DNA of 64,000 bases from Syntrophothermus sp. (GCA_050260975.1 JBLNCV010000166.1:830-64829); one strand, 5' to 3'; shown: positions 2,405 through 52,363, counted from the stretch's first letter. A program made the numbers and translations. The notes: generated by a model from the sequence alone, not told the origin.

Positions 2405-5400
2405 CTATTTCTGCCGGATCCGTCCTTCGAGCCCGCCCTCCGCCTCTTTATGGGATTCAAACCAGCGCGCCAGCGCGTCGGCAGCTCTGACGAAGGTATC
2501 CGTCCGGTTCCGCGCGCCACTGAAGGCCCCGATCCGCGGGTCAAGAGCAAGCGTCGCCGGCATCGCCACCCGGTAGATTCTCCCGGGTGCTAACGGCTTT
2601 CCGCCGGATCGCACCTCCAATACCTGTTTTCCTTTCCCGGTTCCGGCAACCAAAAGCTCGATTCCAGAGATCTGGACAACCTCCTGGCGCGAACGGACCA
2701 TCTGGGCCACGGCCTGTTCCAATCTGGCGCCGGAGATCTCCATAAGAATCAGATGCTCCCGCGCCGGCAAGAGCGCGAAAAGATCCCCTAATGTGACCGG
2801 GCCCGCCGGGAGATCTCCTTTCAGTCCTTCCCCGGGCTGCAAAGCGACCTCCGCGCCGGTGGCCTCCCGATAAGCGTCAGTGACTACGTTGCCGAGGTTG
2901 GATTCCCCCTGCGGGTCCCGCTCTAATGGCACGGCGCTCGTCCCCACAATCTGCGCCAGTCTCACCCTGGTGCGGAGCGCATACCGTCCGGCCAGATCCA
3001 CCATCGCCGCATCCGGGTCCGTCCTGCCCGGCGCCGCCTCCACCAGCTGCATCCCGTGCCAGCCCACCTTCCCGGCATCTTTGTCCCAGAGGAGGCGGGT
3101 CCGGGCCAGCGAACTGCCTCCCTGGCCTGGCGCCATCACCGGCACTCTGTGGGCCACGGCGGTATAGCCACCCGGCGCGGTTCTACCGGATGGCGCAGCC
3201 ACCACCAGATCCACCCCCCGCAGATCTTTTGCCAGATCTTCGACTTTTCCGGGAACATGCGCGATTACCACCACGATCTCCGCGCCGGCCTTGCGCAGTT
3301 TGGCGGCTTCGGCATTCACCGCCGGGACAACCGGCCGGAAATCGATCGCGGAGAGAATCTCCGGCCGGATTGCTTCCGGGGCGGATGGCAAGGTGGCGCC
3401 GACCAGGCCGATCTTTCGCCCGCCGGCAGTCACCATCTTGGTGGGCGCCGCCCACTTCACCGGGAGGCCGGTAGCCCGTTCGTAAAGATTGGCCGCCAGG
3501 AAGCTGAACCTGGCCCGGACCGCCCTCGCCTCAAAGACAGCCTCCCCCCATTCCAGATCGTCTTCCCCGATGGCTGCAGCGGTGAACCCAAGCGTATTCA
3601 GCGCCTCCACCATCGCCTCCCCCTGGAAAAGGTCGTTGCCGGCGTCCCCGGCCAGCAGATCGCCGGCGTCAACCAGGATAGTCCCCCTGGGATTCTGCTC
3701 CCGGATCTCGGTAATATTGCCGCCCAAAAGCGGCAATCCGCCCAGCTCCCTCCCGCCGGACCACGGGTACCTGCGGGCCGCCAGGCCGCCACGCAAGCCG
3801 CCGGTGGCCACCACATCAATGACCGTGTAACTGCCCGTCCTGACCCGCCCATCGACCGCCGCGCCCACCTTCCTCTGGGCGGTTGTCCATTCCCTGAGCA
3901 CTTGGGCTAAAGAACGGTGGTAACGGATCAGATACCGCACCGGGTCTCCCTGGCGTTCACTCCGGGCAAGCAAGCTGCGTAACGCCGCAATCCGGTAATG
4001 CGCCAGGGGATCCAGCAACCTGCCGCCGATCTCCACGGCGACCACCCGGTTGCCTGCGCTTCTATGGAAATCAAAATGAAGATTCATCCCGGAGAACTGC
4101 GGAAAGGCCGGTGTTCCCGGCAACTGGGACCCATCCAGCTCCGCAGGCTTTCCGGACCCCGGCGGCGTCCCGGGATCCACCGGCCGCGAAGGATATCCGG
4201 CCACTCCGCGCTCCAGCAGCTCTTTAACCACAGCCCCGCGAACCTCCGCGACCACGACCTCCCCACCGCCGGGAACCAGTCTTTGCAGATCCGCCGGGAT
4301 GATGACCCCTCTGGCCAGGCCCGCCCGGAGATCCCGCGCCTCAAGCATCGCGATATCCGCGCCAGTATAAGACCGAACCGCGTCCGCGGCGAAATTGCCG
4401 AGCACCGTCTCTCCGCTGGACACCTGAGCCGGTTCATATACCATCTCCACCAGCGCTTCCCCAAGCTTTTCGGGCGCCGGGCGTCCGGTTTGCACTTGAG
4501 GTGTTTGGGGCGTCCGAGACGCTTGAGGCGCCTGGGATGCCGGAGGCGCCTGGGGCAAATACCGGCCCTGGACCTCCGTAACCCCGGTTTCGCCAATGGT
4601 AAGCTCTACTCTTGCATAAGAAGTTTTTTCCCCGCCCACCCACATCAGAAAACTGTTGCGGGTTTGCTCCACAACCGGGGCGTTCCGGTCGGGCCTTGCG
4701 TCTCGGGGAGTTTTCCCGCTGTATTGCCGGGAATAGACGCCCGGCGTCTGGGTTCTCCCCAACACCAGATCGATTCCCGCAACCTGCCGGACCATCGCGC
4801 GATCCGCTTCAGGACCCAGATCCGATAATACCACCACCAGATCCGCCGCCCCCGCCACCTCGGGGATCAATTTGGCGGCGGCTTGCACCGGGTCTGTTAC
4901 AGCCAACCCTGGGTAAGGACTGCGCAAGCCCTCCAGAAGCTGGGGCCCGGCTGCAAGATCCACCTGAGGCGCCAGAAGGCCGATTACTCCCACCCGCAGA
5001 GTTCCAACCGGGATAATTATGTAGGATTGGGCAAAATCCGGCTTCCTTTCCTGGCGCCCTTCGGCCAGCAGGTTGGCGGCCAGCAGAGGATCTTCCTTTC
5101 CCTCCGCCCACTGGCGCAATCTTCCTTCACCCGAAATCAGATCGGCTTCCCCTGGAACAACTACGGTAACCACCGTCGCGTTGTCCGCCCAAAACTCGAG
5201 TTGTCCACCGGGGCCAACCGTGTAGCGCAGCACGACTTTCCCAGGCGTCCGCCGCCGGACGGCCAGCTCCCCCGCAGGAGGAGCCTTGCGACTGGAGCCG
5301 TTTGTGGAGGCCAGGTCCTGCTTGATGGGTTGTTCAGCGACCTGTTCCGCCCCCTGGGATACGGAGGCGTTTTTCCCCGCGCGGAAACCGTCGCGTCCGC

Positions 5401-18689: not shown

Positions 18690-18765
18690 TGGAGCCGGCG
18701 ATGGGACTCGAACCCGCAACCTGCTGATTACGATTCAGCTGCTCTACCAATTGAGCTACACCGGC
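18690..18765 (-). tRNA. tRNA-Thr (anticodon CGU)
   Basis: 76-nt cloverleaf on the minus strand: GCCGGTG acceptor, GCTC/GAGC D-stem, anticodon loop AUCGUAA, TTCGAGT T-loop, encoded CCA. One C-A mismatch in the T-stem. Confidence 0.75.
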
Positions 18766-18781
18766 ATCTCCGGCAATAAAA

Positions 18782-18856
18782 TGGAGCGGATGACGGGATT
18801 CGAACCCGCGACCCTCGGCTTGGGAAGCCAATGCTCTACCGCTGAGCCACATCCGC
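18782..18856 (-). tRNA. tRNA-Gly (anticodon CCC)
   Basis: 75-nt cloverleaf: GCGGATG acceptor, anticodon loop UUCCCAA, T-loop TTCGAAT, discriminator U, encoded CCA. Confidence 0.8.
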
Positions 18857-18870
18857 TCGTTTCAACAATT

Positions 18871-18899
18871 ATTATAACCTAACCAGGGTAAAATGTCAA
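18871..18899 (-). promoter_or_regulatory. Sigma-A type promoter (TTGACA-17-TATAAT) for the tRNA-Gly/Thr operon
   Basis: Perfect -35 TTGACA (rc of 18894-18899) and -10 TATAAT (rc of 18871-18876) with a 17-nt spacer, about 8 nt upstream of the tRNA-Gly 5' end. Confidence 0.6.
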
Positions 18900-18954: not shown

Positions 18955-19965
18955 CTACAGCGCGTATGTAAGGAACGCAACATATAGTACCCCGCCTATC
19001 CCAAGCAGCATGTATGGGCTGAGGGTATTCTTCCGCTTGAGGTAGGTAAACTGGATCAAAATCGACGCTAACGCGATGATGGCGCTGACCAGTGTTATCC
19101 CCGATAATTTCCAGGGAGTGAACGCCACGCCGATCGCCACCGGGATGGAACTCTGAAAGACCATGGCGCCAGTTATGTTGCCCACGGCCAGAGTGTCTTT
19201 GCCCCGGCTGATCCAGATGATACTGTTGAACTTTTCCGGCAGTTCAGTGGCAATCGGGGTAATGATGATCGATAAGAGCAGCGGGGAAACATGTAGCGCA
19301 TCTGCCAGATGTTCAATATTGGTCACGAAAAAATGCGCCCCGATCACAATTCCCGCTAGCGCCAGGACAACCTGAGCGAAAATGAAGGGCAATTCAGTGG
19401 GTAACTTCAAAAACTGGGTCATATAGAGAGGAACTGGTTCTCCTTCGCTTTCCGTGGTGTTTTCGAGGGTCTTTCGGACATACAACCCGTAGAGGATCAC
19501 CAGAAAAATGGCAATCGCCCATTTGGCGTATTGATTATTGATAAACGCCGCCAGGATGGCAATCGGGTAAACGATCAGGAAGTAGGTCATGTCCACCGTC
19601 ATATTGGTGGTATCCAGAGCCATCTCCCGCTTCTTCTCCCTCACTTTGGCGAAGGCCAGCACCGAAGTACCGGTCACAAGGAGGGCCAGGGTGGACAGCA
19701 TAAAAGGCGCCCCGAGAATCGCGCCGATCCCGATGGCGCTGGCATCCTGCCCACCGGTAAAGAGAATGGCGATAATGGGGATCATCGTCTCGGGCATGGC
19801 CGTTCCCACCGCCGCCAGCAGGCTGCCCACCACCGCCTCGCCGAGCTTGAGTTTCTTCCCGGCCCATTCGATACCGTTGGTGAAGACTTCGCAACTGGAA
19901 AGGATGACCGCCAGGCTTAAAACCAGACCGATGGAAGCCAAAAAGATTACCATGTTTTCCACCAC
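18955..19965 (-). CDS. CaCA-family cation/Ca2+ exchanger (YrbG-like Na+/Ca2+ exchanger membrane domain)
   Basis: 336 aa, about 10 TM, with two alpha-repeat regions (GTAMPETMIPIIAI... and GNITGAMVFQSSIPVAI). The start is GTG 19965 or ATG 19953. Confidence 0.75.
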   Translation of the reverse strand: MVENMVIFLASIGLVLSLAVILSSCEVFTNGIEWAGKKLKLGEAVVGSLLAAVGTAMPETMIPIIAILFTGGQDASAIGIGAILGAPFMLSTLALLVTGTSVLAFAKVREKKREMALDTTNMTVDMTYFLIVYPIAILAAFINNQYAKWAIAIFLVILYGLYVRKTLENTTESEGEPVPLYMTQFLKLPTELPFIFAQVVLALAGIVIGAHFFVTNIEHLADALHVSPLLLSIIITPIATELPEKFNSIIWISRGKDTLAVGNITGAMVFQSSIPVAIGVAFTPWKLSGITLVSAIIALASILIQFTYLKRKNTLSPYMLLGIGGVLYVAFLTYAL

Positions 19966-20059
19966 TCCTTCTTCATCTGCAGAGCCGCAAAGCTTGCTGC
20001 CGCATTATTAAATGCTCTGTTCACCCCTGATATGATCGGCAAAGCGGTAGGTAACAAAA

Positions 20060-20283
20060 GAAACCTTTATTTTGGCATCCACCAAAATAAAGGTCTGGCT
20101 CCCAAGATACATTGCTCTCGCCCTTTACACCGCTCCCGCCCATCCCTGGGCTCCGCGGCACCTTGACCTCCTGTCAAATGCAGAGCATGTCGGTATCTTG
20201 TCAATAAGACGGGCGGTCCTTGCGCCTTGCTGTCGACCTTATTGCACAGGTGCAACCTGTGTAAGCTACTCCCCTTTATTCCC
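20060..20283 (-). promoter_or_regulatory. Predicted Mn2+-sensing yybP-ykoY riboswitch (aptamer about 20085-20283) with an intrinsic-terminator expression platform (20060-20092)
   Basis: The minus-strand leader starts GGGAAUAAAGGGGAGUAGC..., carrying the AAAGGGGAGUAGC L1 motif that is a hallmark of this riboswitch. It ends ...GGGAGCCAGACCUUUAUU, like the conserved AGCAAGACCUUU 3' end. The P1 3' strand CCUUUAUU is also the 5' arm of a perfect 12-bp hairpin CCUUUAUUUUGG-CAUCCA-CCAAAAUAAAGG followed by UUUCUUUUGUU, about 95 nt upstream of the exchanger start. An internal long-range helix CAAGAUAC/GUAUCUUG is present. Confidence 0.6.
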
Positions 20284-20290
20284 TGGCCTA

Positions 20291-20319
20291 ATTATATCTT
20301 TTGGGCCTCTTTCCGTCAA
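20291..20319 (-). promoter_or_regulatory. Sigma-A type promoter (TTGACG-17-TATAAT) driving the riboswitch/exchanger transcript
   Basis: -35 is the rc of 20314-20319 and -10 the rc of 20291-20296. The predicted TSS sits immediately before the GGGAAUAAAGGGGAG aptamer start. Confidence 0.5.
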
Positions 20320-20358: not shown

Positions 20359-20401
20359 AAATACAAAATCGGGAGCCTGGATCAAAAGTTCCAGACTCCC
20401 G
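20359..20401 (-). terminator. Rho-independent terminator of the nuo operon
   Basis: The minus strand reads CGGGAGUCUGGAACUUUUGAUCCAGGCUCCCG followed by AUUUUGUAUUU, about 50 nt past the nuoN stop. Confidence 0.5.
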
Positions 20402-20449
20402 ACCTGATCCCCGGGAATCTGCTCATTCCCCGGAACGCCATCTGCGACT

Positions 20450-51805: not shown

Positions 51806-52363
51806 TTAAAAGATCCCCCATAAGGTTGCCACGCCGAAGATCACAAAGACCACCCCGGCGATACGTCTGATCATCCGGGGAGAAAGGAACCGGTTAAGCT
51901 GCCGGCCCACCGCCCCTCCCAGGAGGATAACCAGCCCCAACCCGGCCGCGGACCCCAGGCCGACTAATAAGGGATAGTTCGATTTGGCGGCCAGCAACAT
52001 GGTGGTCAGTTGCGTCTTGTCCCCCAGTTCGGCCAGAAAGAACGAAAAGAAGGCCACCCAAAAGGGAGATCCATTGTTTTTGATCTGCTCCTCTTTGCCG
52101 CTCTCTTTTTGCAAGAAGGTCCAGACACCAAAGACCAGAAACAGGAGGCCGGCGCCCCATTTGATCAGAAGCGGGGGCACAATATGGTAAAACAGATCCC
52201 CCACCGTTACGGCAATAATTACGAGAATGATCATTGCCGAAATCGCACCGGCCAGCACCGGCGCCAGGCGGTAGCGGGACGCCAGGGACAACACCAAAAG
52301 CTGCGTCTTGTCCCCAAGTTCGGCCAGCGCTACCAGAGATAACGCCGTAAGAAAGACATTCAT
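51806..52363 (-). CDS. UPF0016/GDT1-family (TMEM165-like) cation transporter
   Basis: Two copies of the E-x-G-D-K-T motif (ELGDKTQL twice) in a 6-TM protein. Confidence 0.8.
   Translation of the reverse strand: MNVFLTALSLVALAELGDKTQLLVLSLASRYRLAPVLAGAISAMIILVIIAVTVGDLFYHIVPPLLIKWGAGLLFLVFGVWTFLQKESGKEEQIKNNGSPFWVAFFSFFLAELGDKTQLTTMLLAAKSNYPLLVGLGSAAGLGLVILLGGAVGRQLNRFLSPRMIRRIAGVVFVIFGVATLWGIF

Follow-up and report, generated by a model that had tools for sequence, protein, structure and literature searches.

A leader on the minus strand of a Syntrophothermus genome is very probably a yybP-ykoY (Mn2+) riboswitch that turns transcription ON, placed ahead of a CaCA-superfamily gene whose product likely exports Mn2+. 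The leader lies in a 64-kb stretch of DNA, the whole of which was analyzed and which is referred to as the window, and in it promoter, aptamer, intrinsic terminator and CaCA gene follow one another on the minus strand (Table 1). The element belongs to the class by sequence and by structure, its helices covary across related leaders, its aptamer and terminator pairings exclude each other, and the transporter is a homolog of a proven Mn exporter.

The promoter that had been pointed out in an earlier reading of the sequence alone (the sequence-only reading) is present, and in a sister genome (L083, with an exchanger 84% identical to that of the window) both of its hexamers are identical and the spacer between them has diverged. 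Transcription probably starts near 20284, which gives a leader of about 331 nt to the ATG at 19953, close to the 320 nt or so estimated before. Directly 3' of the nuoN-like gene that precedes the leader, a 16-bp G+C-rich terminator hairpin (20405..20366, minus strand) sets the riboswitch-CaCA unit apart as its own transcription unit. The sequence of this hairpin is not kept in L083, though L083 also has a hairpin there. At the other end of the leader, a spacer of about 90 nt separates the U-tract of the riboswitch terminator from the Shine-Dalgarno sequence. An ATG at 19976 opens a mini-ORF of nine codons (MKKEWWKTW; 19947-19976, minus strand) that is out of frame with the CaCA gene and overlaps its start, and a 2-nt difference in L083 brings this upstream ATG in frame with the CaCA gene. 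Most likely the mini-ORF is a by-product of the conservation around the ribosome-binding site. A 62-aa ORF within the leader (20255-20067) was dismissed; its TTG start lies inside P2 and is not accompanied by a ribosome-binding site, and its conservation tracks the RNA structure rather than the reading frame. Directly 3' of the CaCA gene are two tRNA genes (18693-18856 and 18871-18899, minus strand) with a perfect TTGACA-17-TATAAT promoter of their own, followed by a terminator-like hairpin at 18672-18653. L083 has this pair of tRNAs after its CaCA gene as well (3063-3217).

Table 1. Features of the riboswitch-CaCA locus, in window coordinates and in order of transcription. A7 is the 14-sequence alignment and R2 the covariance model described in the text.
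Feature	Position	Strand	Remarks
Proton_antipo_M (nuoN-like) gene, 3' end	stop 20450	-	upstream of the leader
Sigma-70-type promoter TTGACG-17-TATAAT	20319..20291	-	11/12 consensus positions
5' motif GGGAAUAAAGGGGAGUAGC	20283..20265	-	leader start
yybP-ykoY (Mn2+) aptamer	20086..20280	-	four-way junction P1.1/L1/P1.2, P2, P3.1/L3/P3.2, P4; model R2, fold, covariation
P1.1 5' strand AAUAAAGG	20280-20273	-	pairs with 20093-20086; 8 bp
L1 5' strand GGAGUA	20272-20267	-	metal-site and docking loop; invariant in 14/14 aligned riboswitches
P1.2 5' strand GCUU	20263..20266	-	pairs with GAGC 20098-20101; covaries in A7
P2 hairpin CACAGGU-UGC-ACCUGUG	20245..20261	-	5/5 modeled pairs covary
P3 arm	20202..20244	-	P3.1 is 20237-20244 with 20202-20209
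L3 UCGACAGCAA	20227-20236	-	holds invariant C20232 and A20231
P3.2	20223-20226 with 20212-20215	-	
P4 arm	20103..20200	-	8-bp stem and extended apical region
P4 stem CAAGAUAC with GUAUCUUG	20200-20193 with 20110-20103	-	long-range helix, 8 bp
69-nt lineage-specific insertion	20179-20111	-	P4 apical loop; absent in L083, present in L081
3' motif GGGAGCCAGACCUUUAUU	20103..20086	-	
L1 3' strand C-AGA	20094..20097	-	variable nucleotide C20097, then A20096 G20095 A20094
P1.1 3' strand CCUUUAUU	20093-20086	-	switching sequence; common to the terminator 5' arm
Intrinsic terminator	20053..20096	-	12-bp perfect core stem, 20093-20082 with 20075-20064; -19.1 kcal/mol
Shine-Dalgarno AAGGAG of exchanger gene	19965..19970	-	19979-19951 is 96% identical to L083
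CaCA-superfamily transporter gene	19953..18955	-	332 aa; two PF01699 repeats, signatures GTAMPE and ATELPE

Riboswitches of the yybP-ykoY class are defined by a four-helix junction, P1 to P4, of which P2 and P4 are variable, and the L1 GGAGUA, the L3 C-A and the 3' AGA are the nucleotides named as metal-binding and invariant (PMC6649816). When the aptamer was folded alone (20284-20086), its minimum-free-energy structure was the canonical four-way junction, at -70.7 kcal/mol, and the fold of the full leader has a z-score of -3.6 against shuffles. All of the metal-site nucleotides are present in the window and alignable across 14 sequences. The conserved 5' L1 sequence GGGGAGUAG, with its A-minor adenosine, occurs at 20274-20266, just where the sequence-only reading had seen the L1 signature at the start of the leader, and GGGAGUA is unchanged in all 14 sequences, E. 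coli mntP and alx among them. The 3' AGA is likewise invariant in the 14, window included, and lies in the conserved 3' end recognized earlier. The L3 C-A pair, which coordinates Mn2+ (through A41 N7 in Lactococcus lactis, PMC6649816), falls in a column that is invariant in alignments A3 and A7. In this case, the base before the AGA is a C, as it also is in L083, and it is a purine in the other 11 aligned sequences; the nucleotide at this position has been described as variable (PMC6649816). The long-range helix reported within the leader is the P4 stem.

The terminator overlaps this structure. Its stem, which can grow to 16 bp (20096..20061), leads into the U-tract UUUCUUUUGUU. The perfect 12-bp stem and the U-tract are as first described, whereas the loop then given as CAUCCA, the one slip among the sequence statements of that reading, is the plus-strand reading and is UGGAUG on the RNA; L083 keeps the terminator with a different loop. 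The P1.1 3' strand lies wholly within the terminator 5' arm, an overlap already seen from the sequence alone, and because of it a P1.1 helix stabilized by ligand would exclude the terminator. The same sharing of one strand by P1.1 and the terminator is found in L083 and in four orthologous leaders (L017, L068, L026 and L035). In folds of the full leader the terminator state is at -88.7 kcal/mol and the state with P1.1 enforced at -78.3 kcal/mol, energies that fit a predicted switch which is OFF by default and which ligand turns ON. The ON-switch layout proposed from the sequence therefore has behind it the mutually exclusive pairings and fold energies as well as the covariance model and covariation described below. 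Which ligand acts, which way the switch regulates and which ion is transported are inferred, and the predicted mechanism runs as follows. RNA transcribed from about 20284 would fold during transcription into the four-way-junction aptamer, where Mn2+ bridging L1 and L3 would keep P1.1 (20280-20273 with 20093-20086) closed. The 3' strand of P1.1 would then be unavailable to the terminator (20096-20061), and RNA polymerase would read through into the CaCA gene, whose product is most likely a Mn2+ exporter. With little Mn2+ present, the terminator, as the more stable structure, would form and the transcript would stop at the U-tract.

Significance against the Rfam family RF00080 had been named in the sequence-only reading as a point on which it could fail. 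With RF00080 (taken from a copy of Rfam 15) at its gathering threshold of 45 bits, neither the whole 64-kb window nor 20 orthologous loci gave a match, and the window leader scored 12.1 bits (E = 0.4 in a 551-nt search), far short of significance. This proved an unreliable measure, since the validated E. coli mntP riboswitch (L084, 2462-2558) itself scores 41.6 bits, and the threshold is not discriminating here because canonical-looking leaders fall short along with mntP. Orthologous CaCA leaders scored 27.5 bits (L017, 1289-1447) and 17.1 bits (L027), and the compact sister element in L083 (1737-1869) scored 15.4 bits. The L017 leader looks textbook-canonical, with AAAGGGGAGUAGC...GUCGUCAUUACGG...AGCAAGACCUUU and then a terminator. 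In its printed structure line RF00080 has P2, P3 and P4 and lacks P1. Scans at the gathering threshold probably under-call riboswitches of this class. In a separate observation, the canonical L017 leader with its terminator (1297-1426) matches RF02617 (SSRC10, "Streptococcus sRNA 10") at 35 bits, and this "sRNA" family would seem to be the terminated transcript of a Mn2+ riboswitch listed under another name.

We collected 80 loci encoding relatives of the exchanger and built covariance models from their leaders. A single-sequence model (R1), made from the hand-annotated L017 leader, picked out seven leaders, each just upstream of a CaCA gene, and was too weak to find the window, its 98%-identical relative L081 or the E. 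coli controls. Alignment of the leaders with MAFFT (A3 and A4) misplaced the variable hairpins and the P4 gap and was unusable for structure. A second model (R2) was rebuilt from a model-guided alignment (A6) of seven orthologous CaCA leaders from other taxa, a training set that excludes both the window lineage and E. coli. In a search of 79 kb on both strands, comprising the window, its two closest relatives and two E. coli loci, R2 matched L083 (50.4 bits, E = 5.3e-10), E. coli mntP (38.3 bits, E = 4.5e-7), the window at 20281..20084 on the minus strand (36.3 bits, E = 1.3e-6, model positions 1-106), L081 (29.5 bits, E = 5.8e-5) and E. coli alx (26.7 bits, E = 2.7e-4). All of these matches are full-length, and the window element is the sole match within the 64 kb. 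Because R2 was trained independently, its score for the window is a match beyond chance, and the window element matches as well as do two validated Mn2+ riboswitches, with a model trained on neither.

Over 385 kb, R2 gave 14 matches with E <= 1, each of them preceding a CaCA, mntP or alx gene, and the element stands upstream of the CaCA gene in nine of the 80 orthologous loci. These nine are mostly from Bacillota (Neomoorella, Moorellaceae, Peptococcaceae and Clostridia). A metagenome scan for more members of the leader lineage of the window found none. One riboswitch-linked CaCA protein is encoded on a 5-kb contig titled Steroidobacteraceae (L071, gene 433-1551), and its nearest named relatives, at 84-86% identity, are from Candidatus Limnocylindria (Chloroflexota). 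This contig is probably mis-binned and of Chloroflexota rather than Steroidobacteraceae origin; if it is from Limnocylindria, it extends the riboswitch-CaCA pairing to Chloroflexota.

Folding and covariation across orthologous leaders, suggested at the outset as a check, returned the expected junction, with changes on both sides in 23 of the 25 pairs of a 14-sequence alignment (A7). Standard pairs fill 94.9% of the cells of A7, compared to 66.9% in shuffles and 29-49% with slid partners; A7 was fitted to the model structure and many of its sequences also trained the model, so these pair counts are biased upward. None of 500 shuffles attained the observed values of pairing or covariation.

The gene downstream of the leader encodes a protein that matches PF01699 (Na_Ca_ex) in two stretches with 100.9 bits. 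A Syntrophothermus sp. metagenome-assembled genome encodes an identical protein, which is annotated as a sodium:calcium antiporter. The protein scores 78.7 bits with TIGR00367 (calcium/sodium antiporter), under the cutoff of 179.65 bits, and 47.1 with PRK10734, under the cutoff of 432. Among solved structures, the Na+/Ca2+ exchanger NCX_Mj is the nearest to it (E = 3e-10), and the alignment of the two places a Q in the exchanger where NCX_Mj has a D, which we take to be D240. In the orthologue group to which the exchanger belongs, 20 members were aligned and all have the ATELPE motif. By BLASTP the exchanger is 37% identical to Bordetella pertussis BP3410 over 279 aa (E = 2e-45), an approximate identity because the BP3410 sequence was read from a machine-read Fig. 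S1 and is incomplete at the C-terminus. At the same positions, the exchanger has GTAMPE and ATELPE, and BP3410 has GTALPE and ATELPE. BP3410 is a calcium:cation antiporter superfamily protein described by Capek et al. in 2021; its gene lies behind a yybP-ykoY riboswitch at which transcription terminates when Mn is lacking, Mn induces its expression, and ICP-MS showed that it lowers cellular Mn (PMC8546581). By analogy with BP3410, the exchanger is a likely Mn2+ exporter. The suggestion that it is a candidate Mn2+ efflux protein thus gains from homology to a proven Mn exporter as well as from the riboswitch. CaCA proteins, which the sequence-only reading did not count among the typical targets of this class, are already known as a target, the pairing with BP3410 having been shown experimentally in 2021 (PMC8546581). 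Elsewhere in the collected loci, a Na+ riboswitch (RF03071, DUF1646 motif, 56.5 bits, above gathering; L008, 2547-2601) lies immediately 3' of a CaCA homolog in a Clostridia metagenome-assembled genome, where it presumably controls the next gene.

The fold could be real and the signal or transported ion not, or not only, Mn2+, with Ca2+, another divalent metal or pH acting in its place and the protein exporting Ca2+. We regard this as unlikely, though it has more in its favor than any of the other alternatives. The class has been reported as not strictly Mn2+-specific, and the Streptococcus pneumoniae mgtA aptamer, which controls a Mn2+/Ca2+ ATPase, binds Ca2+ more tightly than Mn2+; in the same pneumococcal study, however, read-through was activated far more by Mn2+ than by Ca2+ (PMC6649816), and the window retains the Mn2+-coordinating C-A of L3. 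The annotation as a sodium:calcium antiporter and the proximity to NCX_Mj would also fit Ca2+ export, but the exchanger carries the GTAxPE/ATELPE signatures of BP3410 rather than the GTSLPE of NCX_Mj, and its TIGR00367 score is less than half of the cutoff.

The window also contains a gene of a family commonly found under this riboswitch. An ORF at 51806-52363 (minus strand) encodes two ELGDKTQ motifs of the UPF0016/GDT1 type and begins 53 nt downstream of the preceding ORF. A search for a yybP-ykoY element before this gene, with filters off, found none (best score 6.7 bits), in agreement with the sequence-only reading, which had seen no such leader there. A review lists 328 of 333 screened bacterial UPF0016 genes as being under a yybP-ykoY riboswitch (PMC7380456). 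In this genome, the switch is on the CaCA gene instead of the UPF0016 gene.

The aptamer of the window is, as had been remarked, about twice the usual length, at about 195 nt. What had been taken for a possible expanded variant of the aptamer comes down to the 69-nt insertion in the variable P4 loop; the sister L083 has the same promoter, aptamer and terminator without these 69 nt, and L081 carries them. In the predicted fold, the insertion adds two small hairpins to P4. Rfam gave no match to it, and within the window and the fetched loci it is neither a repeat nor a mobile element. Between the window and L081, all three substitutions at paired positions of the P4 arm, one in the P4 stem (A20199-U to G-U) and two in the insertion, change a Watson-Crick pair to a wobble and are compatible with the fold, and two more substitutions are at unpaired positions; the wobble changes are weak evidence for the predicted fold of the insertion. 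Aptamer and terminator are 90-93% identical between the window and L083, compared to 45-63% in the flanking intergenic DNA, a difference that reads as a clear footprint of selection on the RNA. P4 ranges from absent to long within the class (PMC6649816), and its arm is long in E. coli alx and in L068 too. The insertion is most likely a neutral, tolerated or stabilizing extension of a variable helix and not a new class. We consider it quite improbable that the insertion acts instead as an extra structured domain which tunes the switch in this thermophile, for example through a P3-P4 stack stabilized at 55-60 °C or as a second input, and which would define a functionally distinct, extended subtype of Mn2+ riboswitch.

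An insertion of this size could in principle also impair folding of the aptamer, and the element might then be a decayed relic, in which either the extended P4 or the C before the AGA disables sensing and the leader acts as a constitutive attenuator. The recent, lineage-specific nature of the insertion, and an R2 score below that of the insertion-free sister (36.3 compared to 50.4 bits), would be expected of such a relic. Nevertheless, the core has stayed 90-93% identical to L083 despite diverged flanks, the helix whose apical loop holds the insertion tolerates long stems (as in alx and L068), the paired-position substitutions against L081 are all fold-compatible wobbles, and L083 has the same C before its AGA without carrying the insertion, which together make a loss of switching very unlikely. 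That the leader is an ordinary long 5' UTR with a terminator that resembles a riboswitch by chance is scarcely credible, for although RF00080 gives no match at its gathering threshold, the positive controls likewise fall under it, the independent R2 model matches at full length with an E-value of about 1e-6, every helix covaries, and the element recurs before nine of 80 orthologous genes.

A functional Mn2+ riboswitch ahead of a CaCA exporter, the reading that we prefer, has consequences beyond this locus. The riboswitch annotated here is one that the standard Rfam threshold misses, and similar leaders in Bacillota and Chloroflexota genomes are probably being missed as well, since the RF00080 copy under-scores validated members. 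The precedent from Bordetella is extended to at least nine of 80 orthologous CaCA loci and to the Syntrophothermus lineage. By analogy, this suggests that many proteins of the ATELPE-type orthologue group now annotated as "sodium:calcium antiporter" may really be Mn2+ exporters, and re-annotation of this CaCA group would be useful if that is true. For Syntrophothermus, the CaCA gene would be the likely route of Mn2+ detoxification; the UPF0016 gene elsewhere in the window has no such switch.

Three known systems resemble this one. The window protein shares two Na_Ca_ex repeats and the ten-helix layout with NCX_Mj and YrbG-type exchangers, but its alpha-repeats read GTAMPE and ATELPE where NCX_Mj has GTSLPE twice, and it falls under the NCBIfam cutoffs for YrbG-type calcium/sodium antiporters. 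With the yybP-ykoY class (RF00080; L. lactis yoaB, E. coli mntP and alx, B. subtilis yybP and ykoY, S. pneumoniae mgtA) the window element shares the four-way junction, the metal-site nucleotides of L1 (GGAGUA...AGA) and L3 (C-A), the P1.1 strand common to an intrinsic terminator, the ON logic, and the position before a membrane protein of metal-efflux type. It differs from other members in the length of its aptamer, which is usually about 100-125 nt, in having (with L083) a C rather than a purine before the 3' AGA, and in scoring well below the gathering threshold of the Rfam copy used.

The third system is the Bordetella BP3410 leader (BprK) with its CaCA Mn exporter, compared here by protein sequence and by the description of the leader. 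It has the same pairing, a yybP-ykoY element with termination in the absence of Mn before a two-domain PF01699 CaCA protein, and the two proteins share the GTA[LM]PE and ATELPE alpha-repeat signatures and the NG[IV]EW motif. BP3410 is from the Betaproteobacteria and has an inactivating 10-aa duplication, whereas the window exchanger is from a thermophilic syntroph of the Bacillota and lacks the duplication. Because the BP3410 pairing is documented experimentally and the window protein is a homolog of BP3410, a CaCA target is nothing new for this riboswitch. The class itself is known, as is its occurrence with a CaCA exporter, and the window provides a correct, ordinary annotation of the two together.
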